A stretch of 64,000 bases of DNA from a virus (taxonomy: Duplodnaviria; Caudoviricetes): IMG/VR virus record IMGVR_UViG_3300022601_000013, one strand, 5' to 3'. Positions 6,147 to 40,300 of this stretch are shown here, one piece after another. Position 1 is the first letter of the stretch. Each line of letters begins with the position of its first letter. The notes below the pieces were generated by a model. The model had not been told where the DNA came from and ran no database searches. It worked only from the letters and a program-made list of their open reading frames with translations. The position numbers were made by a program, and so were the translations under genes.

Positions 6147-6160
6147 AAGGTGGTAGTGAT

Positions 6161-6346
6161 ATGGATTCAAAAAAATTTATTTTAGTGCAGGATAAAAATG
6201 CTGCAATGGCATTAACAAAAATGGGATTTAAGTCTATACCATCTGGAGATAATACTTTTGTTTTTATTAATGATGGAGAAATTAAAGTTAACTTTGATTT
6301 GATTGATAAGTCAAAAATTTATTACTCAAATAAAATTAACATATAA
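6161..6346 (+). CDS. small hypothetical protein
   Basis: AAGGTGG RBS; lies between portal and protease. Confidence 0.6.
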   Translation: MDSKKFILVQDKNAAMALTKMGFKSIPSGDNTFVFINDGEIKVNFDLIDKSKIYYSNKINI

Positions 6347-6401
6347 CCTCCTCTTTTTAGGAGTTTATATATATACCTTTAAAGAAAGGAGGACGACTTA
6401 A

Positions 6402-19962: not shown

Positions 19963-20065
19963 ATAAAAATAAAATAAAACATAGAAACAAAAAAATATCA
20001 CTTTAGAAACAGTTCAAACAGAATATGAGTTACAATATGAATTGATTAATAGGGAGATGAAAAAA

Positions 20066-20527
20066 ATGAATGAGTTTTTAAAGTTGTTTGGTGACATTAC
20101 TGTAAGTAATATTGTCACTTTTTTAATTGCCTGTGCGTTTTTAATAGGGGTGTACATAAAAGTAAAAAAGTATCTTATTGATAAATATGAAATTGAAAAG
20201 TCAAAAGACGATAAAATAAAAGAAATATGCGAGGCTGTTAAAGAAATTCCAGAATTAAAAAAAATGCAACAAAATAATGCTGAACGACTTAATAAAATTG
20301 AAGAAGAAAACAGAGAAAGAGAGTGTAATAGGTTGAGAGATATTATCTTGCAAAACTATAGGCACTATACAAATGTAAATACAAATCCATCTCAGTCATG
20401 GACACAGATGGAACATGATAGTTTCTTTGCACTTATAAAAGACTATGAAAAATTAAATGGAAATGGGTTCGTGCATAGCATAGTAATTCCTGCTATGGAA
20501 AATTTAAGAATAGTAGAATTAGAATGA
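20066..20527 (+). CDS. membrane-anchored coiled-coil protein (holin-like/lysis accessory)
   Basis: One N-terminal TM helix; YEKLNGNG motif. Confidence 0.5.
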   Translation: MNEFLKLFGDITVSNIVTFLIACAFLIGVYIKVKKYLIDKYEIEKSKDDKIKEICEAVKEIPELKKMQQNNAERLNKIEEENRERECNRLRDIILQNYRHYTNVNTNPSQSWTQMEHDSFFALIKDYEKLNGNGFVHSIVIPAMENLRIVELE

Positions 20528-20550
20528 TTTAAAAGAAAGGAATGATATAT

Positions 20551-20781
20551 ATGGCATATTGGATAGATTTTAACGCAGAGAGTAAGGCTGAATGTAAGAG
20601 TTTCTATTGCGACTATTTAACGGACATAGATGATCTTCCTCGTTGTGGCGTTGAGGGAGTGCAGCAAGGCTGTGATATGGTATCTCATAAGCCTTGTTCT
20701 TATGGCAGTGACTGTCTCTGTCTTGAAGATTCAAGTGTGTGGATTTTAGGCAAAGCTACAAACGAATGGAAAAAAATTTAA
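20551..20781 (+). CDS. small hypothetical virion-associated protein
   Basis: DIDDLP...GSDCLCLE...WKKI; AAAGGA RBS. Confidence 0.55.
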   Translation: MAYWIDFNAESKAECKSFYCDYLTDIDDLPRCGVEGVQQGCDMVSHKPCSYGSDCLCLEDSSVWILGKATNEWKKI

Positions 20782-20793
20782 GGAGGGGTGTAA

Positions 20794-22422
20794 ATGGCTA
20801 TTGATAAAAAAGCTTATGCTACCTCAAAGGTGTACACTAATCAAGTAGCTCTCGGAATTAGTTCAATGAGAGTTGAGGGTAATACTGTATATTTTACTAT
20901 TATTGACACTGGCGAAGAAGTAGGTGTTACACTTCCTACGCCAGCTGATGGTGCATCTATTACTGAGGTAGATGTTGATGAGAATAATTATCTTATTTGT
21001 ACTCTTTCAAATGGTTCTACAGTAAAATCTACAAATCCTATTAATGTTGTAATTGAGGTAGTTTCTGATGGTGTGCAAGCTGATTTTGAGCAGACAGATA
21101 GTACTGCCGATGATTTTATTAAAAACAAACCTAAGTTTAAGGTTGTAACTGAAGATGATATTGATGAACTTGTAGGAGTTTCAGAAGGTGAAATAGAATT
21201 TGTTTTGCCAGAAGAGGTTGGTCAGTGGATGACTGAACATGAAGCTTATGCAGAAACTTTGAATGAAGCAATTCAGAAAAACGCCACTGATATTGCAAAC
21301 AATGCATCCAATATATCAGAGATAAATACAACGCTTAAAAATAAAGCAAATTCAGATGATGTATATAATAAAGAACAAGTATACAGTAAGGAACAAACAG
21401 ATAATGTAATCACAGCAAAGGTTGCTGAAATTGTCGCTGGTGCTCCAGAAGAGTTTAATACTCTTAAAGAAATGAGCGATTGGCTGACTGAACATGAGGA
21501 TAGTGCAGCCACAATGAACACTGCGATATTAAAGAATAAAGCGGATATTGCAGCCAATACTGAAGCGATTGAAGAGAATAAAAATGATATTTTAAGTGCT
21601 GAAAATGATATTGCGATTAATCGTATTACTTTGGGAACACAGAGTAAAAATTTATTGTCAGTAAATGACGGAACTGCTACGAGATTTATAGATAAAATCA
21701 TAAATCAGATAGAACCAGGGAAATATATAGTGTCTATCGGCGAACTGACATCGACAGATGTTGATAGCTCTATATGTTTGTGCCTTTTTACAGACGATTA
21801 TAATACCCCATTATCAAACAATATACATTTAAAAAGAGGTACTAATGTTAGTGCTACAGTAACCATTAATGAATCAGCTACCAAAATCAGAATATATGCA
21901 TCAAATGACTGGAATAATAGCGATGGCGATACAGTCACAGCATCAAATATTATGTTACGCCCAGCCGACATTACAGACAGCACCTATGAACCATACAAAC
22001 CCTCGGTAAATGAGCGTTTAGTAGAGGTTGAAGAATCCGTCTCAGAGTTAACCCCTCAGGTGGAGCAGAATAAAACGGATGTTTCAAACACCAGAGGATT
22101 TTTCTATTTGAAACAAAGTACCATAGCAGAAAAAACATTTACTTACAATCCAAATACTCTTCATGGTCATTCGAAAAATTTTACTGGTGCTCTGTTAGTC
22201 ACGCTATATGACTGGAGTTCAAATCTTGAACTGAAAGAAAATCTATACCTTGTTTCTTGGAATGGTGGCGTCAATTATATACGAGTGCAACCAATCTTAG
22301 CAAGCAATACAAGATTGTCATTAATATCAGTCACAAGCGAAAATAACATAATAACTTTTACAGCTAATACATCCAGTTATTCTATTACACCATTACACGC
22401 AGGAACTCTTGTTACACAATAA
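20794..22422 (+). CDS. tail fibre protein (coiled shaft + carbohydrate-binding-like domain)
   Basis: QADFEQTDSTADDFIKNKP, IVAGAPEEFNTLKE, SKNLL...TYEPY motifs. Confidence 0.7.
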   Translation: MAIDKKAYATSKVYTNQVALGISSMRVEGNTVYFTIIDTGEEVGVTLPTPADGASITEVDVDENNYLICTLSNGSTVKSTNPINVVIEVVSDGVQADFEQTDSTADDFIKNKPKFKVVTEDDIDELVGVSEGEIEFVLPEEVGQWMTEHEAYAETLNEAIQKNATDIANNASNISEINTTLKNKANSDDVYNKEQVYSKEQTDNVITAKVAEIVAGAPEEFNTLKEMSDWLTEHEDSAATMNTAILKNKADIAANTEAIEENKNDILSAENDIAINRITLGTQSKNLLSVNDGTATRFIDKIINQIEPGKYIVSIGELTSTDVDSSICLCLFTDDYNTPLSNNIHLKRGTNVSATVTINESATKIRIYASNDWNNSDGDTVTASNIMLRPADITDSTYEPYKPSVNERLVEVEESVSELTPQVEQNKTDVSNTRGFFYLKQSTIAEKTFTYNPNTLHGHSKNFTGALLVTLYDWSSNLELKENLYLVSWNGGVNYIRVQPILASNTRLSLISVTSENNIITFTANTSSYSITPLHAGTLVTQ

Positions 22423-22454
22423 AATAATGCTTTTAATTGAAAGGAGGATGAAAC

Positions 22455-24188
22455 ATGGCTCAAGAATATATAACACTTTCTGAAGATGCTCTTAGTAGAC
22501 TTTGCAGTTTAATTAAGGCTGGTGGTGGCGGTGTGGATATAATTGATGATAAAAATGTTGCCATAAATTCGGTTTATTCGTCCGCTAAAATAACAGAGCT
22601 ATTTGATAATATTAAAACAGCAGGTGGTACTGGTGGAAAAGGAATTAGTTCAATTGAGTTTGAATCTTCTTCTCTTGGCGGCGAAACTGCTGGTATTGCA
22701 GGAGCTACAGATACTTATACTATTACCTATTCAGATAATACAACAGACACTTTTAGTGTTTATAACGGTAAAAATGGTACAAATGGCGTTAGGTATTTAC
22801 CTATAACAACTTCCCCAACTGGAGGTAGTGGAACACTTGATGATGGAACAAGATATTATAATAAAATCAAACTTACAACAGCTTTAAATCAATCTCAAGT
22901 TGATGAGATATATACAACAGATATGTTGCTATATCAAGCAAAAATATATCCTGTTGTCGGCTTTGATGATACTTATGTATATCTTGGCAGCCCTACGACT
23001 ATTAAAGGGGATGCAGGTATATCTCCAACCATTGGCAATAATGGTAATTGGTATATAGGAAATGAAGATACGGGGGTTTCTGCTGGGGGAGCAACAGGGA
23101 CTATTAAAGTAAAGACAGGAAAACTTGCTGCCACTCATGGAAATCTTCAAGAAATTCCAGTACATTTATATAATTCTATTGATGGTAATTTTATTGATAA
23201 TGTTTTTTATGGTATCACTCGATATGCTTTTGTTGAAACAACTGTTAATGCTGACGGTATGACGATTAACTCAAAAGAAATTCAAATGTCACAACTTAGT
23301 AGTGGAGTGAATTGGAATGGCGAATTAATTAGTTTCATTGCAACTAAAATATCTGGAATAACTTATTTCTTTTTTATTCTAAAAGACACTTCTGGTTATG
23401 AAACTCTTTATGCTTATCAAAGCACAAGCGGAAGTATCATAGATGATTATGCGAATCAGGGCAATCTTAATATTCACCAAATTACAGATGTTACTAACGA
23501 GCCAAAATTTATGTTAATAAATGGTTATGTATATTTAGCTTATTACACAGAACTTCAGGATTATACAGTAATTATGACGAATGATCCTAAGTATAATAAG
23601 GCTAATGAACTTACACGGTTTATAGAAGTGTATCCAGAAGGAAATAGATTTATGGGAGATTGGCAAGTCTGGGGAAGTGCTGATTTTATATTCTTTAAAA
23701 ACTTTAATAATACTAATGAACCATTTAAAATTTGGAAGCCCAGCAATGATAAAATCCACTATCCTGTTGAAAGAAGTGATTACGGTGAAACAGAACCTTA
23801 TCATTTTTCTCATATGGTTTATTGTAAGAAAGCAAAGTGCTTTATTGCTTATGAAGATAGTGGACAATTCTATTATCGTCATTTTTCAGGATGTGAAAAC
23901 CTCTATCTTTCTAATTGGGACGAAGGTAATATTAGTGGTGACATAACGTATTCGCCTTACTGTATTATCGCAACAAACAATTATTTATTTGTATATAATT
24001 ATGAAGGTTTTGTAGATATGTATGACAAAGACTTCAATCTTTTAAATACAATAAACCGTTCTCGTTTTACGAATATCTTTGAAATTCCTACTGGTATTGT
24101 TTTTTGGTCTGATACTGGAGATACAGTCATTTACCTGTTTGAAACTGAAGAAATAACCATCGAAGAAGCTATTAATAGATTAGTTTAA
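22455..24188 (+). CDS. tail fibre / receptor-binding protein
   Basis: VYSSAKI, TDTYTITYSD..VYNGKNG, SPTIGNNGNWYIGNEDTGVSA motifs; aromatic beta-rich C-domain. Confidence 0.65.
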   Translation: MAQEYITLSEDALSRLCSLIKAGGGGVDIIDDKNVAINSVYSSAKITELFDNIKTAGGTGGKGISSIEFESSSLGGETAGIAGATDTYTITYSDNTTDTFSVYNGKNGTNGVRYLPITTSPTGGSGTLDDGTRYYNKIKLTTALNQSQVDEIYTTDMLLYQAKIYPVVGFDDTYVYLGSPTTIKGDAGISPTIGNNGNWYIGNEDTGVSAGGATGTIKVKTGKLAATHGNLQEIPVHLYNSIDGNFIDNVFYGITRYAFVETTVNADGMTINSKEIQMSQLSSGVNWNGELISFIATKISGITYFFFILKDTSGYETLYAYQSTSGSIIDDYANQGNLNIHQITDVTNEPKFMLINGYVYLAYYTELQDYTVIMTNDPKYNKANELTRFIEVYPEGNRFMGDWQVWGSADFIFFKNFNNTNEPFKIWKPSNDKIHYPVERSDYGETEPYHFSHMVYCKKAKCFIAYEDSGQFYYRHFSGCENLYLSNWDEGNISGDITYSPYCIIATNNYLFVYNYEGFVDMYDKDFNLLNTINRSRFTNIFEIPTGIVFWSDTGDTVIYLFETEEITIEEAINRLV

Positions 24189-24250
24189 TAATATGGCGGT
24201 GAGTATAAGCCGCCAAAAATAAAATAAACAAAAACAAAGAGGTGATCAAC

Positions 24251-24379
24251 ATGGATAATTTAGAAAAACTTACTGCCGAAAACGGCATTAATGAAAATAT
24301 TCAAAACGTAAACTCTTTTGAAGATTTACCAGAGTCTATGAAAGAAGAATTTGCAGATGGTAAGGGTGGTGAAGATTAA
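24251..24379 (+). CDS. 42-aa acidic peptide coupled to the endolysin start (not in ORF track)
   Basis: GAGGTG RBS; MDNLEKLT...ADGKGGED*; TAATG overlap. Confidence 0.6.
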   Translation: MDNLEKLTAENGINENIQNVNSFEDLPESMKEEFADGKGGED

Positions 24380-26349
24380 TGGGATTTACAAATAGCCCGC
24401 TTGTTTATAAAACAATGCTTTCTAATAAACATAATGATAGAAAATACCCTATTAGTAAAATTACAATTCATCATGCCGCTGGCGTAATGACATTTGACAG
24501 ATTGCTTGATTATGTGGCACATTGCAATAGAGATATGTCTGCCAACTATGTGCTTCGCCAAGGTAAACTTGGTCTTGTAGTAGAGGAAAAATATAGAGCG
24601 TGGACATCTTCAAATGCTGAGAATGACCATAGAGCCGTTACGATTGAGGTTGGTAATTCATCTTCTGGTGGCCAATGGCCTATTGCTCCAGAGGATTTAA
24701 ATATGCTTATTAAGTGGTGTGCGGATGTATGTATTCGTAATAATATTCCAAAACTATATTATGATGGCACTAAGAATGGAACACTTACACTTCACGAAAT
24801 GTTTGTTGCTACAGCTTGTTTGCCTGTTGATAGAACTGAAGTTTTGACACCTGATGGTTGGGTGTCTTTGAAAGACATTAATATTGGTGATACTATTGCG
24901 ACGGCACATATTGACGATTTACAGATTAAATTTAGCAAAGTGTTAGATAAAATTCCCGAAAAAATTCAAGATACGTATGTTATTAGAGATTTTGAAGGAA
25001 CATCTGATCACAGAGTGATATATTACAATCAAACTGGAAAACAGTATGTTGAACAGTATAAAGAACTTTTTGATAAAAAGGGCTCTTTATATATTCCTAA
25101 TGCAGGATATTTTGAAGGTCAGGGATTACCAATATCCAAATCTGATATGGAGTTTTTTGTTGCTGTACAAGCTGATGGCCATTATATGCATGATGGAAAT
25201 TGTTATTACGGAATTGAATTTCATTTTACAAAACAAAGAAAAATAGAAAAAATTAAAAATCTTTTAAATGATATGAAAATCGAATATAAGATTTGTGACC
25301 AATCTAACGGATCAACTAAAATACGTATATATGGAAAAAACATAGTTGAATTTTGCGAAGAGTATCTGAATAATAAAAAGTTTACATGGAATTGGTTAAA
25401 TATGTCTCATGCTCAGGCTTTAGACTTTCTCGACATGATAATGTTTTATGATGGTTGCGAAGCAAACAAGGGATATTCATCAAGCATTGTTGAAAATGTA
25501 AATATTGTTCAGGCTATAGCATCATTAAATGGTGTTGGGTCAAAAGTTTGCGACAATGGAACTCGCATATATTTAAAAAAAGAAATGCGTTCATTGGGGG
25601 ACAACAATAAAAAAAGAAAACTTCGTCAAACTGTAAGTTGTGTGACTGTTGAATCAGGATTTATACTTATTCGTCAGCATGGCAGAACAACCATTACTGG
25701 CAACTGCCCTGGCCCGTATATTAAGTCAAAATTAAATTATATTTGTCAAGAAGTAAATAAATTAATTGAAGCTAATAATAAAGGTGCTATTGCACCAACA
25801 CCAACTGTACAATCACAGCCAACCTATAAGGTTGTTACTGATGTATATGGTTATATGACAGCGGCTGATGCAGTGAACGATATCAAGCGTAAACGTACAG
25901 TTAAAGCTGGAACATATTATGTGTTTAATGAAACAAACACTGCGGTAAATGTAACTGCCAAATTAGGTGTGGCTGGTGCATGGATTTCTAAAGCAGCCAA
26001 CAAACAGCCTGTAAAAACTAACACGCCTACACTTCAATCTATTGCAAATGAAGTAATTAAAGGCGAATGGGGTAATGGTACTGAACGTACAAGCAGTCTT
26101 AATAAAGCTGGATATAATGCTGCAAATGTACAGCAAGCCGTAAACGCAATTCTTGCAAGAAAGCCAATTCCTAATATACCTCTGTATTTAAATAATAGCA
26201 AACCTACTGTTATTAAAAAGACAATAAATGAAATTGTAAATGAGGTACTTGCTGGAGAATGGGGTAACGGCACAGAAAGAAAAACACGTCTTACTAAAGC
26301 TGGATATGACTATGATGTTATCCAAAGAGAAGTAAATAAACGTTTTTAA
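24379..26349 (+). CDS. endolysin, N-acetylmuramoyl-L-alanine amidase (Amidase_2) with intein and two Cpl-7 (CW_7) repeats
   Basis: ITIHH, SANY, AWTS, TIEV, H...TA|CPG amidase motifs; EVxxGEWGNGTER twice. Confidence 0.92.
   Translation: MGFTNSPLVYKTMLSNKHNDRKYPISKITIHHAAGVMTFDRLLDYVAHCNRDMSANYVLRQGKLGLVVEEKYRAWTSSNAENDHRAVTIEVGNSSSGGQWPIAPEDLNMLIKWCADVCIRNNIPKLYYDGTKNGTLTLHEMFVATACLPVDRTEVLTPDGWVSLKDINIGDTIATAHIDDLQIKFSKVLDKIPEKIQDTYVIRDFEGTSDHRVIYYNQTGKQYVEQYKELFDKKGSLYIPNAGYFEGQGLPISKSDMEFFVAVQADGHYMHDGNCYYGIEFHFTKQRKIEKIKNLLNDMKIEYKICDQSNGSTKIRIYGKNIVEFCEEYLNNKKFTWNWLNMSHAQALDFLDMIMFYDGCEANKGYSSSIVENVNIVQAIASLNGVGSKVCDNGTRIYLKKEMRSLGDNNKKRKLRQTVSCVTVESGFILIRQHGRTTITGNCPGPYIKSKLNYICQEVNKLIEANNKGAIAPTPTVQSQPTYKVVTDVYGYMTAADAVNDIKRKRTVKAGTYYVFNETNTAVNVTAKLGVAGAWISKAANKQPVKTNTPTLQSIANEVIKGEWGNGTERTSSLNKAGYNAANVQQAVNAILARKPIPNIPLYLNNSKPTVIKKTINEIVNEVLAGEWGNGTERKTRLTKAGYDYDVIQREVNKRF
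24817..25704 (+). mobile_element. intein (296 aa) with LAGLIDADG endonuclease inside the endolysin
   Basis: Block A CLPVDRTEVLTPDGW; block B TSDHRV; VQADG and FYDG endonuclease motifs; block F/G VSCVTVESG...ITGN followed by Cys+1. Confidence 0.92.
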
Positions 26350-26364
26350 GCAAGGGTGATATAT

Positions 26365-26565
26365 ATGAGAGAAAAAATAGCTAAATTAATAGATGTAAAA
26401 AGCATTATTACATTTACATTAACAGGTGTATTTGCCTATTTATCATTGACTGAAAAAATTAGTGAAGATCAATTTATGTTGATATTTACAATGTGTATCT
26501 CATTCTTTTTCGGTAGAAAAACTGGCAAAGACGAAGCGAGAAGCGAAGGTAGTAAAGTTGAATAA
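26365..26565 (+). CDS. holin
   Basis: Two TM helices, KLIDVKSI...FFFG, charged C-terminus; follows endolysin. Confidence 0.75.
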   Translation: MREKIAKLIDVKSIITFTLTGVFAYLSLTEKISEDQFMLIFTMCISFFFGRKTGKDEARSEGSKVE

Positions 26566-26575
26566 TTTAATATAC

Positions 26576-26610
26576 TAAGGAGCTTCTTGAATGGAGCTCC
26601 TTATTTTTTT
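26576..26610 (+). terminator. intrinsic terminator
   Basis: TAAGGAGCTTC/GGAGCTCCTTA followed by T7. Confidence 0.8.
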
Positions 26611-26628
26611 ATAAAAGGAGATGGTGTT

Positions 26629-27132
26629 ATGACTGTAGCTGGAATTGATGCATCTACAACTGCAAGCGGAGTTTCTATAATGAGAGATGGTAAACTTGTA
26701 TTTTACACACTTATAAAATTAAAAGAAAAAGATACAATGAAACGTATAAGACTTATGCTTAAAGATATTTGTGAAATTTTAGATAAGTATGATATAGATG
26801 CAATTTGTATGGAAAAAGCTTTTTCAAAGCAAAATGTCGATACAACAATGAAGTTAGCAAACATCGCTGGGGGCATCATGTTATATTGTGCTTTAAACGA
26901 CATTGAGTTTGAGCATCCTATGCCTTCTTCTTGGAGAGCAAAAATAGGAATTAAACAAGGCGAAGGAAAGCATAAAGTAAAAAGAGAAACACTTAAAGAA
27001 ATGGCTATCAAACTTGTAAAACAAGAATATGGAATTGATGTTGGTGATGATATTGCCGAGTCATTGCTGATAGCTCGCAGTAAATTTGATTTACCAAAAC
27101 TTGAAATTTCCGAAGATGATCTTTGGAATTAA
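26629..27132 (+). CDS. ruvC: RuvC-like Holliday junction resolvase
   Basis: GIDASTTASG, ICME, PSSWR, DDIAESLLI catalytic motifs. Confidence 0.85.
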   Translation: MTVAGIDASTTASGVSIMRDGKLVFYTLIKLKEKDTMKRIRLMLKDICEILDKYDIDAICMEKAFSKQNVDTTMKLANIAGGIMLYCALNDIEFEHPMPSSWRAKIGIKQGEGKHKVKRETLKEMAIKLVKQEYGIDVGDDIAESLLIARSKFDLPKLEISEDDLWN

Positions 27133-27133
27133 A

Positions 27134-27170
27134 CTATGAAAACTATGCTACTATGGTATGGTTTTCATAG
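27134..27170 (+). other. ~16-bp-stem hairpin / imperfect inverted repeat
   Basis: ACTATGAAAACTATGC pairs with GTATGGTTTTCATAGT (G-T pairs allowed). Confidence 0.6.
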
Positions 27171-27215
27171 TAGCTTTATATATATTAAAAACTTAAACAA
27201 AAAGGAGAAATAATT

Positions 27216-27737
27216 ATGAGAGTGAATGATTTAATTAATAAAATGAATACAGAAGGTTTTAATCTTGCCGAGACTATTGAAGCTAAAACATATCTTCCTA
27301 TAGTTTTAAAAAAGGTAATTGCTCAGGAAATTGTGTATGATTGCACATCTGAAGATAATGGAGTAATCAAAGTAGATTCTTTTGAAAGATATATGTCTTA
27401 TGTTAGACATATGATTACAGAGCATACAAATCTTGAATATACAGATGATGATTATGACACTATTTGTTTAACAGAATATAATGGCGATTCATTACTTGGT
27501 GCAATCATTGGTTGTTTTGGAGAAGATGCCAAGGAGTGTTCAAGAGTTTTAGAAATGGTTATGGGAGACTATATGCAGGACACCACTCTTGAAAGTATAC
27601 TTGCTAAGACATTATATAATCTTGAAACAAAGCTTGGTAGCTTTATAGAAAAGATGGCAGACAATACAAAGAATATGATTCCAGAGGGTACGAATGTTGA
27701 AGGATTAAGTAAATTGATTGAAATATTAGGAAAATAA
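27216..27737 (+). CDS. hypothetical protein, possible tail assembly chaperone
   Basis: Acidic helical protein two genes before the TMP. Confidence 0.45.
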   Translation: MRVNDLINKMNTEGFNLAETIEAKTYLPIVLKKVIAQEIVYDCTSEDNGVIKVDSFERYMSYVRHMITEHTNLEYTDDDYDTICLTEYNGDSLLGAIIGCFGEDAKECSRVLEMVMGDYMQDTTLESILAKTLYNLETKLGSFIEKMADNTKNMIPEGTNVEGLSKLIEILGK

Positions 27738-27759
27738 TAAAAAAAGGTTGGTGTGTAGA

Positions 27760-28323
27760 ATGGGTCGTATCTTAGAAAAGGCAGAAAAAGAATTCTTAAA
27801 AAGATGTGCGTCTGCACGTAAGGCTGCGGCACAACAAGCTGCAAAAGAGATTCAAATAGATTTTAAGGAACAAGTTTTTGACCGAGCTGTATGGGATTAT
27901 TATGATGATTATAACAGTTCCAAGTACAAAAGAAGCGAAAGTTTATATGATACATTTAAAGTATATACACAGACAGATGGAAATAATATTGGAATTTCTT
28001 ATGATTGGGACTTTAACAGATTGCCACAATATGCAAGTAATTCTGCATATCATAAAAAAGGAAATGAGTGGATTGATTATTACAATCGAACTGATGACGA
28101 TGATAATGGTGTTCCCGAAAAAGGTTGGATATTTACTAATTTTATGGAAGGTATTCACCCAAGATTTTATTTGGATAAAAAACTTGATGTCATAATTGAT
28201 AATAGCTATCAATCAATTCCATCTTATATTCGTATTAAAAATTACAAAGAAGAGTACATCAGGAGTGGACAAATGAGAGATATTTTAATAAAAAATTTAA
28301 AAAAACAATGTAAAAATATATAA
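27760..28323 (+). CDS. hypothetical tail-associated protein
   Basis: YYDDY..SKYKRSESL motif; directly before the TMP. Confidence 0.5.
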   Translation: MGRILEKAEKEFLKRCASARKAAAQQAAKEIQIDFKEQVFDRAVWDYYDDYNSSKYKRSESLYDTFKVYTQTDGNNIGISYDWDFNRLPQYASNSAYHKKGNEWIDYYNRTDDDDNGVPEKGWIFTNFMEGIHPRFYLDKKLDVIIDNSYQSIPSYIRIKNYKEEYIRSGQMRDILIKNLKKQCKNI

Positions 28324-28339
28324 TTAGGAGGCGACGTTT

Positions 28340-31300
28340 ATGGGAAAATATGATGATGCTATTGGTGGCGGTAAAATAATTCTTAGCGTAGAAGAAATAT
28401 TAAACGAAGAGTCTGCAAAAGCGGTTGACAATAGTATTAAAAAGCAAAAAGCAGAAATAGAAAAACCCGTAACAATAAACATTAGCACACTGCAGGCTCG
28501 CAAGGAGCTTGCAAAGCTCGAAAAATATATTGAACGTATTAAGCATTCTCCAAGACATACTGTTAATACTGATGAGTTTGTAAATATTGCAAAAACACTT
28601 AAGGGTAGCGGAAAGTTTACAAAGGAACTTGAGCATTTAACTAAAGATATTAGTGTAAAAATTAATGGTGCTGTTGTCAATGGCATCGACGATATGATTG
28701 CAGCTTATGAGAAAGGTGCGACAAAGATTGGTAAAATTAAGTTTACTCCTCCAGCCCCAACTTTCTCACAAGAGTACATTGATAAAGCTGAAAAAGATTA
28801 TAAAGGTCATATGATAAAACTTGTTGGCATTTCAAGAAAATTAAATAAAGCAATGTCTGAAAATGCCAGCTTTAATGAAATTGCAGATTTAAAAAACATA
28901 GCTGAAGCCGAAAAAGAATCTATGCAGGAATTAGCTGTTGTTCTTAAAAATAATAACGATTTAATAACAGAAGGAGCAAAGGCTGTAAAGCAATACAGAG
29001 ATGCTGTAAAGCAACTTGACGATATGAAGGTTGGTGATCAGGTTGTAAGTGAGCCCAAAAGTGTAACTGCTACTAAAGAACAGATTAAAGCATTAACACA
29101 ACTTAAAAAGGAAGCTGCAGCCACAAGTAAAGCTTTTTACGAAGCCGACAGCAAGCTTCATGATGTTATCGAACAAGAAAGAAAATTAAAAAATACTTAT
29201 GGTGAAATTACAGATTATATTGAAAAAGTTAATGAAATAAGTACAAAAAGACAGAATGTAAGTCTTGAAGATTTACCTGCTGCGAAGCTGAAAAAACAGC
29301 ATAAAGAATATGTTGATGTTATAGGAAACATACTTAAAGAGGTTATTGCTGCGGGTGGTTCAGGTTATAGAACAAAGCCAACAGAATATAGTGCATACAG
29401 ACATTACCTTGAAAGTGTTGATGATTACAATAAACATACAAATCAAGAATTAAATGACATGCTATCCAGAGTTATGTCTGAAATTCGCAAGGTATACACA
29501 GATACAATAACTGCTTTAACAAATGCTGATAAAAATCAAACAGGACTTGAAAGAGAAGCTGTTTTAAAAAAAAGAGCACTTGCAAAACAACATGCGGATG
29601 CTACTTTGGACTACAACACATCTGCTGACAAATCAAGCGAAGCGACACGTAAACTTTATGATTACGAAAAAGAACTTGAAGAACTTGGTATTAATGTTAA
29701 AGCATTAAGCGAGCAGATAGAGAAGAGTTTAGTTGAAGCGAAAAAGCCTAATAAAAAAATAGAGAAAAAAGACAACGAAGAAGCTATAATTAAGCGTTTC
29801 AATAAACTTATGACTGATATTGGAGCAACAGGCTCAAGAATCGACAAGGAAAATAAAATTAACTCTTCGTGGAATGTTCGTGATATGGTTGCTGAGGCTG
29901 AGGCACAACACAAGTTAAGATATAGTTTATCTCCGTCTGCACTTGGTATTACAGACAAAGATGAGTTAAAAACTTTTAATTCTGAGAAAGGGAAAATTGA
30001 AAGATTTATTAAAGCTTTTGAACCTCTTATTAGTCAATTGACAACAACAGAAAATCATAATTCCAAATATGATAACACTACTGAAGTTAACCAAAAAAAA
30101 CAATTAGATACTATTATACAAAAAAACTCTGCTACAAAAGAAAATGTAGAGGCCATAAAGCAAGAGACAGAAGCTCATAAGGCGAACACTAAAGCAGTTG
30201 AAGCTGAAAAGAATACAAAAGAAAGTATAACTGACAACAAGACTGCAACTGCAAATCTTTCAGATGATAAGAATAAAATAGATGTTACGCCAGTCAGAAA
30301 TGTATCAGAAATCCAAAAAGATATTGATGACACTAAAAATGTTTTAAAAATACAACAGGGATGGATAGACATTTTTGGAAAATATCTTGAAGAAGACTAT
30401 ATGAAATCTTCTGGCAAAAAAGAAGCCACTGAAAAATTAAGAAATGCGGTTAAGCGTTTGATAACATATAGAAGTGATCCTCGTCAATATGAATGGCAAG
30501 CATACGCACAAGAAAAATATGAACTGAATGCTGCAATTGCATACAAACAGGCTGAAAAAATTGGTGTTTCAGACAAAACTTTAACAACATACAGAACTGA
30601 CGCAATAGACCCATATACTTTCAACAAGAATATGGACACAGTTAAACGTGTGGTTGATGAGCATCTTGATATTATAAGCAAGCAGACACAAAAACTTGAG
30701 CAGCTTCAGGCTGAATTAATCTCTGTAAAAGAAAAAGAAATTAAAACAACCGATCAGCCTACTAAATCAAAAATTAAATATTACGAAATAGACGAAAATG
30801 CCGCAAGAATATCAAAACAAATGCGTAGCTTTGATGATTACAAAGAAGGCTCTGCTACAGCTTCATACAAAGCGGCAATTGACAAGATAGCAAAAGTTGT
30901 AGAAGACAAGAAGACTCAATTTCCAGAAAAATCTGAACAGCTTGACAAACTATTCGACAGATATGCTAAGAATTTAGCAACATATATAAACAAGGATAAT
31001 CAAATTGGAGCACGATATCCAAGCGTTATGATTTCTGGTGCAGGAAACTATAATGTAAAGAAACATGACAAACAACTTGCCAGCTGGGGTAAAAATTATC
31101 AGTTTTATGAAGATAAAGTTCTTGCTCTTGAAAATCAAATTAGAACTTTAGGTGGCGGGGCAGAGGTTATTCGTGGGGACGAAGAAAATGCTCTTGAAAA
31201 ACTTGAAGCGAAAGTTGAATATTTGAAGTATTGGCATCAGGTTATGGTTGATGTAAACAAGTATTATAGAAAAAACAAATCATTAGAAGGTTTTGATGGA

Positions 31301-34300
31301 GCAGATACAGACGAGCTTGAAAGAATACAAAAAGATCTTGCCGATATGCAAAAGTTTGGAAGACTTGATGTTCCGTATCCTCAGTTTACACTTGCTAACG
31401 ACAACCAAAACATTAAACGTCTTGAGGGTAGAATAGCTGAACTTAAAAAACTTAAATCAGAGAATAGCTCAAGTAATAATTTACAAGAAGAAAATGATAT
31501 CTATAAGCTGTGGGTTGATAAACAGGATATGCGAATCCGTATATCTTTTGAAATAGGCAAGCCAGAACAAGAAATTATTGACATGCTTAAAGGTAAGGCA
31601 TTTAAATGGTCTCCAAAAAATCAAGCATGGCAAAGACAATTAACTAACAATGCCGTTTATGATACTAAGCAATTAAAAACATCATTAAATGAGTTTTATG
31701 GTATTGAAACACAAGCACAACCTAACACTACTGTAGCAGAAGTTCAGCCAAAAGCACAAGATGAATTGGTAAAAAAAGAAAAAGAACACACTACCGCACT
31801 AATGGAACGCACAAATGCGGCCAATGAGTTTGCACAAATAAATAAAGAAATAATACTTCAGCATCAGAAATCAGAGCCTTTTATGCAAAGATATGGCGAA
31901 ATTACTCAAGATATATTGAATGGTAATGTTGCATTAGAAGAAGCTAACAAACAACTAAACAGTTTTGTGTCAACACTTTCAGAAGTGCCTGAAGAAAAGC
32001 TTAAGTTAATTGCAAATCCAAAAAACAATCAAGAGAAAATTTACAATGCGTTGATTTCTGGCAATGAGTTAGAGCAAAGCAAAAAAGGAATTGTTAACGG
32101 ATATAGTGCCGAAGATAGAACATTAATTGCAAAAGCTATTACAGAAGGTCTTCAGCAAGGTTTAAAGGAAATTAATATTAAATTAGGCAATGGTGGGGAA
32201 TTAGCTATTCCAAGCAATGCAGAAATCGCAAGTACAATTCTTAGCAAATTAGGTTTTACTACTAAAACAGATCCGCTGACAGATTTTGTACAAAAACAAT
32301 TTAAGAAATCTAATATAGTTGGCGTTGCAAGTTCTGGTGACGACCATTATGTTTCGGATAGTAGCAAGTTTTATAAAGTGCCTCGTAGTATAAACAAATC
32401 CGATTTAAACAATGATGACGTACAAATTAGAACTCTTGAATCAATACTTAATTATGTAAATATGTTTTCTGAGGCTACCGAGAAACTTCCAGCAAATGTA
32501 AAAGAGTTTAGATACAAAATTGGATCTGGAACAAAAGCAAAGTCAAAATCTATGTATTTGTTTAAAACAGAAGATGGAAAATATATAGCATTAGATAAAT
32601 CAAGTTTTGATGATGTTAAAAAAGTATCATCTGATATTATGTATAATCCTAAGTTGTTTGACAAAAATGGTACATATACTGGAGCTGTTTATGGTGTAAA
32701 TAATGATAGAGCGTTAACATCTGGACTTTTACCAATAAGTTCAAAAAATGCTGAAGATAATTATAAAAAAGGTATTCCAGTTTCAAAGAGCGTGACTGAA
32801 ACGAACAAAAAGCCGTTAGATTTACTTTCAATTCCTGTAAAAGCAATTGAAGCCGAAAATAAAGCTCTTGATAAGCAAGCTGAGAAAACCGAAAATATTA
32901 TTGAGAACAATAAGAAACTTACATCTTCATACGAAGGACTTGTTGAAGCAGTTGAGCAGTATGTAAATACAAGTAAAAAGCTTTGGGATGCATATGATAA
33001 CAAAAAAGAAACTAACGAACTTACTAAAGAAAGAAACACAGCAATTGATAAAATTAAAACATTTTTCCCAGTTGATAATACCAACGGTATAAGTGCAAAT
33101 CTTACTCAATCTGGATATGAAATGAACTTGCAAGATGGCAATGTTTCAAGGGAATTTGCAAACAAAGGTGCTGAATTTACATTGCAACACATTGAGTCAA
33201 GCATTAAAGCATCTGAAATAGAACTTGAACAATTAAAAGAAAAAACAGAAGCTGAAGAAAAGCTTGCTCAAAACATAGAAAAAACAACAGAAGCAAAAAA
33301 GAAACAACAAAAGGTAATTAAAGAAACTCCTGTGGTGAACGAAGCACCAAAAGAGCAAACTAATGTTGTCAAAGAAAGTGTAAAGATAGCTGAAAAAGAA
33401 CTTGAAACAAAAAAAGAACAACTTAAGGTTGAAAAAGAGATTACTGCTGAAGAAACAAAAAGAGTAAAAACAAAAAAAACAACTAAAACTAAAACGCAAA
33501 TTAACCTTGATGAAGAGGGTAATAACGAAGATGAAAGAGTTGACATCATACAACAAACTGTAGATAAAGCACTTGAACGACTTAGAAACGCAGAAAACAA
33601 TATTGTTCCAAAACTAAACATTGATTTATCTAAAGTAGAAACTCAAGGCGATTTGCAATATCAGATTGGAAATCTTGTGCAATCATCATTAAATGCCGAT
33701 TTGTCTGTTGGTTCTGTTAATATTGATCACGATATAGCTAAAATTTCTTTGTATAATAAAGAACTTGGTTTAGTAACACAACAAATGTGGCAATTAAAAC
33801 AAGTTGAAGATTCGTTACAGTTAGAATTTCTTGATGCAAGTAAGTTAAATGTAAACTTTGAGCAAGCTGAAAAATACGCAATAGCTCAACAAAAAGCAAT
33901 TGATAGTGCTGAAAATTGGCTTATAAATGCTAACAAGAGATTAAATACTCAAAAAAGAAATTACCAGAAATCTCAAAAAAAGATAGCTGGTTCGACAGAA
34001 TTGATAGATGTCGATGCTACAACATTAGAGGCTCAGGCAGACAAAACAATTGATAGTTTGGTAGCTCATATTCAAGATCGTATAAATAGCAACATGGGCA
34101 AAACTGTTTCAGAGGGACTTAAAAATCAAATTGTAAAAGATTTAAATGCACTTGAGAATGAAATTAAAATACGACAATTAGAACAATATACAAGTACTAC
34201 AATGAGTGCATCTGAAGCAGAGTCTGCAAGACAGGTTATCATTAACACAATAGACTCTATAGCCGCAAACGCAAAACGAAAGAATGTGTTTGACCAAATT

Positions 34301-37300
34301 AAAGAAAGTTATGAAAGTTTGCGTTCACGTTTAACAGACAGTTCAATCGAAGGATACATTAGCACTAACTTTACTGATGCTATTAATGAAATGAGAGTTC
34401 TCAGAGCAGATTTATCTAAAAATTCTGCCGAAGAACAAAATCTTAAAAATCTTATTGCCCTTCAAGAAAAATTATATGAAGCAAAAAAGAAGGCAGCAGT
34501 ATTTGATATAAGCGGAGAGTCTAATACTTCTGGTGGAATGAAAGCTCACAGAATTGTTGAAGAATTACAACAACAATATAATGAGTCTGTTAAAGTTTTA
34601 AAAATAGAAGAGCAACGTAATACTATTACTGCACGTCAACAAAAATTACAAGAAGAGTTAAACAAATTTAACTCTGAGCAACGTTCAAAACAACAAGAGA
34701 CAAAAGATAAAGAGCAAGAAACTGCAAACAAAGCAAAACAAGAGCAACCAATAATGCAAACATATGCTTCGTTATTTGATATTACTAAAAACATAAACTC
34801 TATTAATGAGCAAATTATGAAGTATCAAGATAAAAATGATGGTTCGCAAATGTTTGCAAACTATATTTCAAACTTAAAGCTGCAAAGACAAGAGCTTGAA
34901 GTTGAACTTAATACTATAGTTAATGACTTAAGTAATTTTTATGCCAATGGTTATATACAAGGTAATCAAAAAATTAATCCAATTCCTTCAAAGCTTATAG
35001 ACGGAGAAAGCTATAATTCAATTAGTTCGTTTTTAAATGACATTAAAACACAAGCAGTTTTAAGCGAAAAAGAAATTAATGACTTATTAAATAGCTTTCA
35101 AAAAATGAAAGATATGGATATATCTGGTGGAAATAAGATAGCTGATATAATTAAACCTGTATTTGAAACATCTAATAGACTTGATGGTATTCAAGGATTA
35201 AAGCCAGAAAAAACAGCACCATTAGCTGGAATATCAGATACTATAAAAGCGTATGTTGGCAAAATTAAATCAGGAGAAATGTCATGGGATTCTGATGAAA
35301 TACCATATCTTAAACAGCTTATTGAAATGTATGTTAAATATGGCAATACGCTTGCAGATACAGCTGAAAAAGAACAGAAGTATTTTGCTAACAAACAAAA
35401 ATACACTTCTGGAATGAAACTGTCAGATGTTACTAATGTAAATACAGAAAACGAAAAAGCGTATAGTGATATGAGAAAGAAACTTGAAGATACAGCACGT
35501 AAGATGGCTGAAGAGTCTGGCAAGGGTCAGATTTTTACAACAGGTTTCTCTCAGGGTGCTGACGGCATTGCAAAACTTGATTTCTCTGTGTTTGACTCTG
35601 CTACAAAGTCGTTACAAAACTTTAGGCTTGAGATGGGTAATGTAACTAACAATATGTCTGTTACAGAAACAACTGTATCTAAATCGTTGCGTAATATTAA
35701 CGCAGCACGAAAACAACTTGAATCATCATCAAACTTACTTGGTATTTTAAGTAGTTCGGGTGTAAATGTTGGTGATGGTGCAACAAAATCAGTTTCTAAA
35801 CTTGTTACTCAAATTAGTTTGTTAGATACTGAAATGAGCAAAGGGGATAAGGCAGATCAAAGTAAAATTGCAATGTATACAAAGCAGCTTGGAATTATGT
35901 CTTCTGAAATTGATAAAGCATATAAACAAATGCTTAAGATGGAAGATGGTATTAGCAGCGGAACATTAAAAAACAGAGGTGTTATAGATACAAATAGCAA
36001 TGTGTATACCCAAGCAAAACAACAAATTGAATCTTATGCACAGACTATCCCAAACGCAACAGTAAGTATAGGTGCTTTTAATGAACAGACTGGCAAAATA
36101 CCATTTACTATAAATGTAGCCAATCAAGAAATAAGAAAATGCGAAGCCCAAATAAACTCTTTAAATGGACAAATGACAATTCAAGAAAAGAGCGTTAATC
36201 AGCTTAAAACTAATATTACTCAAGCGGCTGGAGCGTATGACAGGTTTAAGGGTTCATTAGCATCTGTTGGCAAACAGTTGGTTACTGCTGTTATTGGTTA
36301 TAATGCTTTTTATAAAGTTATTAGTATGTTTAGAACTGGTGTAGGCTATGTCAAAGAAATTGATTTAGCAATGACTGAGCTTAAAAAAGTAACTAATGAA
36401 ACATCAGAAACATATGATAAGTTTTTAAACAATGCATACAAATCTGCTGGTCAAGTAGGTGCTACAATATCTGACTTTGTACAGGCAAGTGCTAACTTCG
36501 CAAGACTTGGTTATGACCTTGATCAGACATCAGATATGGCACAAACAGCTATTGTGTATAAAAATGTAGCAGACGGCTTAAACAGTATTGACGATGCTAC
36601 TGAAAGTATTGTTTCTACTATGAAAGCATTTAATGTAGAAGCTGATGCTACAATGACTATAGCTGACAAATTCAACGAAGTTGGTAACTCATACGCTATA
36701 ACTTCAGCAGGCATAGGCGAAGCTTTAAAGCGTTCAGCATCATCATTGGCTGCTGCTGGAAACACATTAGATGAGTCAATTGCTCTTGTAACTGGAGCTA
36801 ATGCAGTAGTTCAAAATCCAGAAGTTGTTGGTACAGCATTAAAAACACTTTCGCTCAGAATCAGAGGTGTTAAGACCGAATTAGAAGAAGCTGGTCTTGA
36901 TGCTGAAAACATGGCTGAAACTACGGCAACATTGCATGAAAAATTATTAGCACTTAGCCACGGAAAAGTTGATATATTAAAAAATGCAGACGAGTTTGAA
37001 TCTACAACTGAAATTTTAAGACAACTTGCGTCAGCATGGGAAGATATGACTGATATGGAACAGGCTGCAGCAATTGAGCTCGTAGCTGGTAAACGTCAGG
37101 CAAACGTTGTGTCATCACTTATGACAAACTTTGATATAGTAGAAGATGCAATACAAACATCAATGAAGTCAGAAGGTTCTGCACTTAAAGAAAATCAAAA
37201 ATATCTTAATTCAATACAAGGTAAAACAGAAGCTCTCACAAGATCAACACAAGAGCTTTGGAATGAATTAATAAGTTCAGAAGTAATTAAATATTTTATT

Positions 37301-40300
37301 GATGTAACACAAGGTGTTGTTGATTTTGCTAACGCATTTGGTCCATTAAAAACAACATTGGCTGCAGTATTGACATATTTTATGGCGTTCAAAAAAGTAA
37401 ATCCATTGTTAACAATTCAAGGATTTATAAATCAAATGTCGGCTTATGGAAATGCTTCTACATCGTTGTCAAGCCTTACTGGTTCAATAGGTGTAAGTAA
37501 CTTAGGAACAGCAGAAATAGCTACATACGCAGCAGCTGTACAAAATTTAACGTACCAAAAACAAGCGGCTATACTTGCTACAAACGGTTTAAATCAAGCA
37601 ACTATAAAAGAGATATTACTTGAGAATAAAGCAACAGAAGCTGATATACAATCGGCAATGACACAATCAATTGTTACCAGACAAAAACAAGCTGATACAG
37701 CTGTCAATACAGCTTTAACTATAAGCACAGAAATGGCAAGTAATGCAAAATTAAGCGAGGCTGCAAGCAATTTTCTTTTAGCAAATACTGGGAAAGAGCT
37801 TACAAATCAAATGCTTGCCGAGGCTGTTGGTCGTGGTGCAATTACTAAAGCAACAAAAACAGAAATTGCAGCTAAATTTGGACTTATTGGTGTAAATACT
37901 GGTGTTGCAACATCAATTAAAGGTATTGGAACTGCAATAAGACTCGCCATTAGCTCAAATCCTATAGGGTTTATACTTGCAGTTGTTAGTACTATTGCTA
38001 TGGCTATTCCACTTTTTGATAGATTTAGTCAATCGGCTGAAGAACTTGCACAAGAAATGGAACAGGTTAAAGATGCATACAAACAAGTGTCTGATGAAAT
38101 TAACAGTAATATATCTAAAATCACTGACGTTGAAGACGAATTTAATCGTCTTTCAAAAGGTGTAAGTGACTTAGGCGAAAATATTTCATTATCGGCAGAC
38201 GATTATGCAAGATATCAAGAAATAGTTCAAGAACTTGTTGGTATATCTCCAAGCCTCATTTCTGGATACGACAAGGAAGGTAAAGCTATTGCGAACAAAA
38301 ATAGTTTAATTGAACGTTCAATTGAGCTTATGGAAAGAGAACAACAACTTGAGGCAAAAAAACTTACTACTGGAGATACAGGCAAAAATGTATTAAAAGA
38401 TATTAAAGACAGATACAATAAAACTGCTGGCAAAAAAAGTAGCGAAACACATGATTTTACAATAAATTACAGTGCAAGCCTTAATGATGAAGTGTGGAAG
38501 CATGTGGGTAAAAATGGTTTTGGCACACCAACAATTATTGAAGAAATTATCGGAGAAGATACATATGGCGGTGACGTAGTAGCGTTCGCAAGAGCGGAAT
38601 ACGAGAAGGTCATAGATGATTTAAGAAATGAAAATAGTGTTATTGAAAAATATCTTGGCACAGAATATGCAAACACCTTAAGAGAACGTGTTGCGGAATA
38701 CGAAGATTCTATGAAAATTTTTGATGCCGAATTAAGTAAAATCAAAAGTGAATACAACGAACAACTTTCTAATACCCTATTAGGTTCAGACGAATACTGG
38801 GATCTTAATAGTGATATGAGAGGTTATGCTCAAAGTTACGTTTTAAATCTTGATGTTAATACTGAAAATATAAATGAAAAAGAAAAGGAAGTAGAAGAAT
38901 TTGTTAAGTTCTTGTCTGAACATCAGGATGATTTTTCAGATACTTTTGAAAAAGGATATGATGCAATATCAAAAACAGACGAAAAAGGTATAGCTATATC
39001 GTACAAAAAGTATATTAAAAATGTTGAAGATTTTAAGAAAGAACTTCAAGATAATACAGTTTATAATGACGAGCAAAAGAACTGGATTCTTTCAACACTT
39101 GGTTTTGATACTATAGATGAAGACTTAGAAAAAAAGGTTGATAAAATAAGAAATACATTAATAACAGACATTGCTGGGCCTACGCATAAAAGCGTTGTTG
39201 GACCGTCAAATGACACTGTAGATAAACAAATTGAAATAGGAAACTTTATTAACAGCCTTTCTACTCAAGATCTTGAAATATTTTACACAATTAGTGCAAG
39301 TCCAAACAGTATGACATTTGATGAAATTATTGCCGCAATACAAAAAGTAAAAGATTCAACTGGTGTAGGCGTTATTGGTATTGAAACACAAAGCTCAATT
39401 GTTGAACAGTTTGAAAAACATAAGGAAATTTTAACTCAAACTCAAGAAATCTTTATGGACAATGTTGCTGTAACAGAAGAGTATAAAACAGCATTAACTG
39501 AACTTGGTATTTCTGCAACAGAATTAAATGAATGTTTCTATGAAGCAAATCCGCTTGTTGTAAAAAATGCTGAAAAACTTAAAGAACTTATAAAGAACAC
39601 AAAAAACAATACAGCAAACAATACAAAATTAGCAAAAAGCCAAGCAATGCTTAAGTACACAAAATTGCAGAAGCAAACTCAAGATTTAGCAAAAAGATAT
39701 AAAACTTTAACATCCGCTGAAAAATCACAGTTAAAGGCAATGTATGAAGAAATGTCAGTTTTGCAGAAAAACATTGCTAAATATTCATTACTTGAACACC
39801 AACTTCTTGGAACAGCTAATGCATATGAAGAGTTTGCGAATGCTCAGGAAATAGACAGTAGCAATACTTATACAGAACAAGCTCAAGATATGGCTAATGC
39901 ACTTGCAGAAGCTTTTAATTCAGCAAAGCTTGGTACAGAAAGTGCTCAAGCCGCAATTAAAGGTCTTGTGCCAGAGAGTGTATATAAGGATATTGACATT
40001 CTTGATGATAAAATGCAAGCTATATACGACTATTTCAACGGTGGCACACTTTCAAAATATATCACAATAGAATACAATGATGATGATCATAGTATTGAAA
40101 GAGTCGAAATAACAATGGAGAATATGAAAAAATTCTTCGAAGATGGCAAAACTAATGGTGTGTTTACTGGAACGTGGGATGAGTTTGATTTAGACCCAAC
40201 AATTAATAGTTTAGACCAGCTTGCCGAAAAGATGAATGTTACAAAAGAAGTGGCATTCGCAGTAATGCAAGAAATGGAAAAATATGATATTAATTGGCTT

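Follow-up and report, generated by a model that had tools for sequence, protein, structure and literature searches.

A 64,000-nucleotide (nt) stretch of DNA from a large uncultured gut-type phage of the Caudoviricetes (IMG/VR record IMGVR_UViG_3300022601_000013; the whole stretch is called the window below) carries an endolysin gene interrupted in frame by an insert with the features of an intein. The lysin open reading frame (ORF; 24379..26349, on the plus strand, as are all features given here) encodes a 656-amino-acid (aa) precursor, P0001, which runs from an Amidase_2 domain through a 296-aa insert to two CW_7 wall-binding repeats. The N-extein (residues 1-146; 24379..24816) holds the Amidase_2 catalytic domain and ends H-E-M-F-V-A-T-A. 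The intein (residues 147-442; 24817..25704) begins C-L-P-V-D-R and ends T-I-T-G-N, and the C-extein (214 aa and the stop codon; 25705..26349) resumes at residue 443, the Cys of a C-P-G motif. The opening residues C-P-G-P-Y of the C-extein complete the Amidase_2 domain, and a linker then leads to the CW_7 repeats (about 26032-26154 and 26227-26340; Pfam CW_7, E 3.6e-34); the Cpl-7 wall-binding module of PDB entry 5i8l matches the homologous repeats. A sequence-only reading of this DNA had placed a 296-aa intein here and had expected a shift from about 74 to 40 kDa on splicing; its coordinates, junction residues and length proved right, and the computed masses agree (73.9 kDa for the precursor, 39.9 kDa for the spliced amidase and 34.0 kDa for the intein).

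The host protein is assigned to the Amidase_2 family (T7-lysozyme/PGRP-type zinc N-acetylmuramoyl-L-alanine amidases) by a profile match together with a His/His/Cys triad. Pfam Amidase_2 covers residues 23-127 of the precursor (profile positions 3-114 of 131; 40 bits against a cut-off of 26) and aligns at full length with an intein-less allele of the same lysin (positions 3-131 of 131; 44.8 bits), and the PHROG endolysin family phrog_7698 matches the lysin with E 1e-72. When the intein-less allele and its relatives were aligned with T7 lysozyme, the sole invariant columns of catalytic type were those of His31 (24469-24471), His139 (24793-24795) and Cys147 in spliced numbering. These columns correspond to residues 17, 122 and 130 of mature T7 lysozyme, with identical H-x7-C spacing in both proteins, and the two His residues are on this alignment the predicted zinc ligands. 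The three T7 residues are established as the zinc ligands of that enzyme (Cheng et al. 1994). A profile of the intein-less domain gave weak but consistent matches to amidases in the PDB, and 7f5i and 6su5 align their own H-x7-C-P-G at this place. The AlphaFold2 (AF2) model of the intein-less lysin was poor (predicted local distance difference test, pLDDT, 65.5), Foldseek returned for it only weak matches to LytA and PlyP100 (probability 0.6-0.7), and NCBIfam assigned no family to the precursor.

The intein sits exactly between H-x7 and C-P-G, after the eighth residue past His139 and before Cys+1 (precursor Cys443, Cys147 once spliced). The +1 Cys is accordingly predicted to be both the splicing nucleophile and the third zinc ligand, the counterpart of T7 lysozyme Cys130, as the sequence-only reading had proposed. 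Conservation within the element was assessed by aligning the inserts of 107 cluster representatives, 95 of them full-length and 12 short, with the endonuclease deleted. Cys1 of block A, the N-terminal splicing nucleophile (24817..24819), is present in all 107. In block B, T62-S-D64-H65-R66 (25000..25014; Thr B:7, His B:10 and Arg B:11), the Thr, Asp and His are invariant and the Arg occurs in 106 of 107. Block F, V273-S-C275-V-T-V-E-S-G-F-I-L-I-R286-Q287 (25633..25677), has an invariant Cys at F:4, invariant R286 and Q287, and no His at F:13; in block G, R-T291-T-I-T-G295-N296 followed by Cys+1 (25684..25707, the Cys codon at 25705-25707), G295, N296 at G:7 and Cys+1 never vary. The complete set of invariant residues comprises Cys1, Thr62, Asp64, His65, Val273, Cys275, Val278, Arg286, Gln287, Thr291, Gly295, Asn296 and the +1 Cys.

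The HINT splicing domain is split by a predicted LAGLIDADG homing-endonuclease domain (about intein residues 100-262; 25114..25602), delimited by AF2 secondary structure, Foldseek and conservation. Its two motifs are F-F-V-A-V-Q-A-D-G, with Asp120 (25153-25179), and L-D-M-I-M-F-Y-D-G, with Asp212 (25429-25455). Among the 95 full-length representatives D120 is kept in 90, D212 in 91 and K142 in 94; all three, Lys142 included, are present in this copy, and its endonuclease looks intact. The AF2 model of the intein, built on 57 sequences, is very confident (pLDDT 96.3; predicted template-modelling score, pTM, 0.92). Its best Foldseek matches in the PDB are TliVMA and PhoVMA (E 1e-11 to 1e-10), PI-PfuI, PI-SceI and the Thermococcus (Tko) Pol intein, with probability 1.00 for the first four, and I-DmoI matches the central domain (E 4e-6; template-modelling score by target 0.6). 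Pfam LAGLIDADG_3 reaches 18.2 bits, short of its cut-off of 22.5, and Pfam Intein_splicing likewise stays under its cut-off, which explains why such proteins bear the name 'hypothetical' or plain amidase in their source databases. Taken together, Cys1, T-x-x-H, the C-terminal Asn, Cys+1, the predicted HINT fold and the in-frame insertion identify the insert as a class-1-type intein.

Comparison with the best structural matches, TliVMA/PhoVMA (PDB 7qsu, 7qss, 7qst), PI-PfuI (1dq3) and PI-SceI (1vde, 1ef0), which span Foldseek E values of 1e-11 to 1e-8, brings out a common plan of a HINT domain interrupted by a two-motif LAGLIDADG endonuclease, with Cys1, T-x-x-H, C-terminal Asn and Cys+1. Sequence identity to these inteins is only 8-14%. 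At 296 aa the lysin intein is smaller, and it has no counterpart of the additional DNA-recognition regions found in PI-SceI and PI-PfuI; Gly replaces His at G:6, Cys replaces Asp at F:4 and F:13 has no His; and the host protein is a cell-wall amidase rather than an ATPase, a polymerase or a ribonucleotide reductase (RNR). Two other types of HINT element were considered and rejected. Class 3 inteins are defined by a W-C-T triad (Trp B:12, Cys F:4, Thr G:5) and the absence of a nucleophile at position 1 (PMC7664689, PMC5050341). Despite its invariant Cys F:4, the only member of the triad that is fixed in the family, the lysin intein falls outside this class because Cys1 is invariant and B:12 is Val67 (Val, Met or Ile in the family) instead of Trp. 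Residue G:5 is also variable (Thr in 50, Val in 42 and Ile in 15 of the 107; Thr in this copy), and what the element shares with class 3 inteins such as those of mycobacteriophage Bethlehem DnaB and MchDnaB1 is Cys F:4 and an association with phage. A cleavage-only domain of the bacterial intein-like (BIL) or Hedgehog type was rejected because the terminal Asn and the nucleophilic, enzyme-required +1 Cys are both invariant.

The penultimate residue (G:6) is Gly295 and not His, as the sequence-only reading had remarked, and this Gly is invariant in the whole lysin-intein family. A residue other than His occupies G:6 in about 5% of functional inteins, and Asn cyclisation in Ssp DnaE is aided by Arg B:11 (PMC4031507). 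The closest parallel by description, rather than by sequence alignment, is the intein of mycobacteriophage Bethlehem gp51, likewise a phage class 1 intein with a penultimate Gly and one of several such phage inteins without His at that place, whose host is a metallophosphoesterase-like recombination directionality factor (RDF). Its endonuclease is toxic (active), and its splicing has been demonstrated and goes to completion, whereas a Gly-to-His mutant needs more than 5 h to reach half-completion (Kelley et al. 2016, PMC5050341). By this analogy Gly295 is no defect and represents a known splicing-competent phage variant. The idea that a Gly-Asn ending betrays an impaired intein or a special switch is not supported, given the family-wide invariance and the splicing of Bethlehem gp51. 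We infer that the nearly invariant Arg66, perhaps with Arg286 and Gln287, substitutes for the missing His.

The sequence-only reading had called for a search for intein-less alleles, and such alleles were found as two proteins, P0005 and its cluster-mate P0276, and on five viral contigs. P0005 (360 aa) is 98-99% identical to the exteins, and P0276 is identical to them at 358 of 360 positions, the two differences being N50D and a change of the -1 residue from Ala to Gly. The five IMG/VR viral contigs (77-126 kb) carry lysin genes whose products share 75-84% identity with the exteins, and there the site reads without interruption ...GCA-ACA-GGC/TGC-CCA-GGA... (here and below the slash marks the insertion point). 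By blastn, window positions 24250-24814 and 25704-26088 match the adjacent positions 5872-6436 and 6438-6825 of contig L003, with the roughly 890 nt between them as the sole disruption; the contiguity of the flanks in related contigs indicates that these 890 nt are a clean insertion. The intein-less lysins of the Streptococcus phage Javan422 (HEWFANTN-CPGPY) and the Microbacterium phage Koji (HGEFYATA-CPGPD) likewise align with the exteins without a further gap at the junction. The identical intein-bearing protein was found on 21 contigs, the longest of 145 kb, which together with the near-identical intein-free allele indicates that both alleles circulate; the existence of an intein-free twin further implies that the intein is dispensable. 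When metagenomes were scanned with the intein-less allele, none of the relatives returned exceeded 65% identity.

The residue before the insertion point differs between the two kinds of allele. The -1 codon of this copy is GCT (Ala; 24814-24816), and among intein-bearing alleles (n=193) the -1 residue is Ala in 103, Ser in 41 and Gly in 2. Of 11 close intein-free alleles, which are not independent of one another, 9 have Gly at this position, with the codon GGC in contigs L003-L006. This association could be a mark of co-conversion, a splicing preference or constraint, or the sign of a cleavage-resistant target. On one 139-kb contig the lysin appears as two gene calls, P0272 (equivalent to lysin residues 1-289) and P0271 (299-656), with the break inside the endonuclease domain; a frameshift, an assembly error or a naturally split precursor could each account for it.

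The element belongs to a large family. A word-indexed search returned 639 matches, and the best 120 consist almost entirely of Amidase_2 proteins that carry this insert in the same place, ending G-N/C-P-G, and with wall-binding domains that vary among CW_7, PG_binding_1/3, SH3, choline-binding, glucosaminidase, SPOR and Phage_lysozyme2. An exhaustive phmmer search across 1.84 billion representatives yielded 2534 relatives at E<=1e-3, of which 106 reach E<=1e-30, and more than 100 clusters (50% identity) of amidases carry the intein at this one site. Matches of this number and strength, like those of Foldseek to known inteins, cannot be put down to chance. Among the best 150, the H-x7/C site is occupied in several Amidase_2 subfamilies, with junctions such as H-Y-D-V-T-G-K-x/C-P, K-H-Q-D-W-S-G-K-Y/C-P-H-R and H-R-W-F-A-N-K-x/C-P-G-D. 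In the 12 short representatives (among P0107-P0119), some of them found on contigs about 249 kb long, the intein measures 223 aa, having lost the LAGLIDADG core (about intein residues 122-196 and 209-216) and kept every splicing block. These endonuclease-deleted versions, taken with the intein-free twin, point to the classic homing cycle of invasion, spread, endonuclease decay and loss.

Relatives of the intein were also seen in other positions and hosts. Five proteins (P0123, P0129, P0179, P0187 and P0246) carry one at either of two other Amidase_2 sites, after I-x-I-H, which ends in the first zinc-ligand His, or after A-W-H, and P0123 (983 aa) and P0129 (1037 aa) apparently hold two inteins in one amidase. 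The Gly-Asn clade further includes inteins in Amidase_5 phage peptidoglycan hydrolases (P0208 and P0211; ..G-H/C...G-N/T-G) and in a family A DNA polymerase (P0260, DNA_pol_A; ..P-N/C...G-N/C-Q-N-I-P), and an Atlas structural neighbour suggests Peptidase_M15_3 as a candidate host. No second copy of the intein was found in the window.

These findings are best explained, in our judgement with high probability, by a selfish and still mobile class-1-type intein with an intact LAGLIDADG endonuclease, inserted in the endolysin gene of a large uncultured phage. The splicing pathway proposed here is deduced from the conserved residues. The gene would be translated as the 73.9-kDa precursor, in which Cys1, with Thr62 and His65, would turn the Ala146-Cys1 peptide bond into a thioester; attack by Cys+1 would then give a branched intermediate, cyclisation of Asn296 would free the 34-kDa intein, with Arg66 (B:11) and Arg286/Gln287 probably taking the place of His G:6, and an S-to-N shift would leave the 39.9-kDa amidase with its H-x7-C-P-G zinc site restored. 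The unspliced precursor is probably inactive, and we expect splicing to proceed constitutively in the cytoplasm and to end before the holin fires. The endonuclease, whose candidate target is the empty site in contigs L003-L007, is predicted to cut intein-free lysin alleles at ...ACA-GGC/TGC-CCA... during mixed infection or phage-prophage contact, and repair of the cut allele would copy the intein in. Homing of this kind would account for its spread across many diverged Amidase_2 lysins.

The sequence-only reading had offered a selfish element as its alternative, and that alternative is now favoured by the intein-free allele identical at 358 of 360 positions, by the conserved endonuclease residues and by the greater similarity of inteins than of exteins. 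In P0008 the intein is 79% identical and the amidase domain 39%, next to an unrelated C-terminal half, and the inteins agree more closely than the amidase domains do in 97 of 106 comparisons to this copy. Several points nevertheless weigh against the selfish reading. The matches behind that count were ranked partly by the intein itself, which biases the 97 of 106 towards similar inteins, and P0004, the closest intein-bearing relative, shows the vertical pattern, with 92% identity in the exteins and 86% in the inteins. The G+C content of the intein (31.8%) equals that of the window (32.5%), so that composition gives no sign of recent arrival and a compositional island was rejected. At the DNA level the empty site was seen only in relatives 75-84% identical in protein sequence. 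Splicing and endonuclease activity are themselves deduced from conservation and a predicted fold, and the invariant Cys1, Cys275 (F:4) and Cys+1 lie beside the zinc site, where metal or redox effects are possible.

Among the competing explanations, the one that survives best, although we hold it to be unlikely, is that the intein acts as a competition weapon, its endonuclease cutting the lysin gene of co-infecting intein-free relatives so that marker exclusion favours the intein-bearing lysis cassette; the element would then be kept for the advantage it gives its carrier. The principle is known from T-even intron endonucleases (Goodrich-Blair and Shub 1996, as cited in PMC6293099), and both the conserved active-site residues of the endonuclease and the coexistence in metagenomes of intein-plus and intein-minus alleles of the same lysin agree with it. 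Sequence data cannot separate such a weapon from plain homing, however, and it is a consequence of the selfish-element reading rather than an alternative to it; marker exclusion in mixed infections is likely a by-product of homing. We think it quite unlikely that lysin inteins form a distinct, widespread lineage specialised on metal-ligand residues of phage cell-wall hydrolases, with a three-cysteine active site beside the zinc site that in some phages would make lysin maturation zinc- or redox-sensitive and so put a post-translational checkpoint on lysis. That proposal draws on insertions at the Cys and His ligands of Amidase_2, at the Amidase_5 site and possibly in Peptidase_M15.

The sequence-only reading had also suggested that conditional splicing might gate the timing of lysis. 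In such a switch, zinc bound by His139, Cys+1, Cys1 and Cys275, or else a disulfide among the three invariant cysteines, would hold the precursor until a redox, metal or temperature state released it, and the intein would help to determine when active lysin becomes available. In favour of the switch, the insertion lies at a zinc ligand, Cys1, Cys275 and Cys+1 are invariant, zinc and redox inhibition are documented for other inteins (PMC7360933, PMC6195587 and references in PMC4031507), and disulfide-bonded precursor conformers occur in a mutant of a Gly-penultimate phage intein (PMC5050341). We nonetheless regard it as very unlikely and found no support for it. The near-identical lysin exists in nature without the intein, as do all the closest relatives on viral contigs, and a sporadic distribution with a conserved endonuclease is typical of a parasite. 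The lysin has neither a signal nor a signal-arrest-release (SAR) sequence, and a holin-like gene comes next.

That gene, a 69-aa ORF (26356..26565), has hydrophobic stretches at residues 17-31 and 39-53 and a charged C-terminal tail, features that suggest a holin-like protein; its PHROG matches are to families of unknown function only. According to the canonical model, lysin builds up in the cytoplasm and the moment of lysis is dictated by the holin. With a lysin that has no signal sequence and a holin-like gene beside it, timing would be expected to be set by the holin, and the intein need only finish splicing beforehand. What keeps the switch alive is chemistry and not evidence. The last possibility, a degenerate insertion that no longer splices and leaves the lysin dead or an unspliced fusion in a phage that uses another lysin, is suggested by the Pfam intein and LAGLIDADG scores below their cut-offs and is extremely unlikely, given that all residues of the four splicing steps are invariant in 107 diverged representatives, that the exteins keep the zinc triad, that a Gly-penultimate phage intein splices fully (PMC5050341) and that the structure model is so confident and so intein-like.

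To our knowledge the described hosts of inteins are, almost without exception, proteins of replication, repair, nucleotide metabolism and packaging. Group I introns, which interrupt phage lysin genes such as lysK of Staphylococcus phage K, are also mobile, self-splicing elements of lysin genes; they splice at the RNA level, whereas the intein is translated and would splice at the protein level. In 50,697 deposited phage records, relatives of the intein align at full length with 21-28% identity. None of 60 rows sampled across 214 of these phage records lay in a lysin, in keeping with the view of the sequence-only reading that a lysin is an unusual intein host; the hosts in those rows were RNR, primase/helicase, PhoH, RtcB, RecD, thymidylate synthase, DNA polymerase and hypothetical or unannotated proteins. 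The nearest deposited relatives, in RNR, primase/helicase, PhoH, RtcB and DNA polymerase, reside in nucleic-acid or nucleotide enzymes, as in the RNR alpha of Staphylococcus Silviavirus and the 'intein-containing topoisomerase primase' of mycobacteriophage Turj99. With the whole precursor as query no deposited phage record reached 80% coverage, and a megablast of window positions 20000-30000 against deposited phages gave no match. A profile scan of about 185,000 GTDB species genomes found a family member in three only, all of them gut or rumen metagenome-assembled genomes, and a single-protein scan of GTDB found none.

No description of an intein in an endolysin was found in the literature searched, which is not proof of absence. 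Among 224 mycobacteriophage Lysin A genes Payne and Hatfull recorded none with an intron or intein (PMC3314691), and the mycobacteriophage intein hosts of Kelley et al. include no lysin, the word 'lysin' occurring 0 times in that paper (PMC5050341). The lysin intein would be a known kind of element in an unreported class of host protein, a finding made at the level of a family, and it would widen the host range of inteins to cell-wall enzymes of a secreted type. With 358 of 360 positions in common, the alleles with and without the intein offer a natural pair for homing studies in gut phages, and the element itself is a compact 296-aa Gly-Asn intein with a C-P-G +1 context, of interest to specialists in inteins and in phage lysis. 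For annotation and lysin mining, genes of this kind are called 'hypothetical' or plain amidase, and they would yield inactive 74-kDa precursors should splicing fail in a foreign host.

Upstream of the lysin gene lies an acidic 42-aa ORF (24251..24379); its stop codon and the lysin ATG overlap (TAATG). The intein-less relatives L003, L005 and L013 are similar in nucleotide sequence from 24250 onwards, at the start of this ORF, which suggests a conserved partnership with the lysin gene. The lysis genes are immediately followed by a gene for a RuvC-type Holliday junction resolvase (26587-27132; Pfam RuvC, E 1.6e-12), which could serve the recombination needed for homing. No tRNA genes were found in the window. 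The lysis and RuvC genes are closely followed by one 5236-aa ORF that spans 28340-44050.

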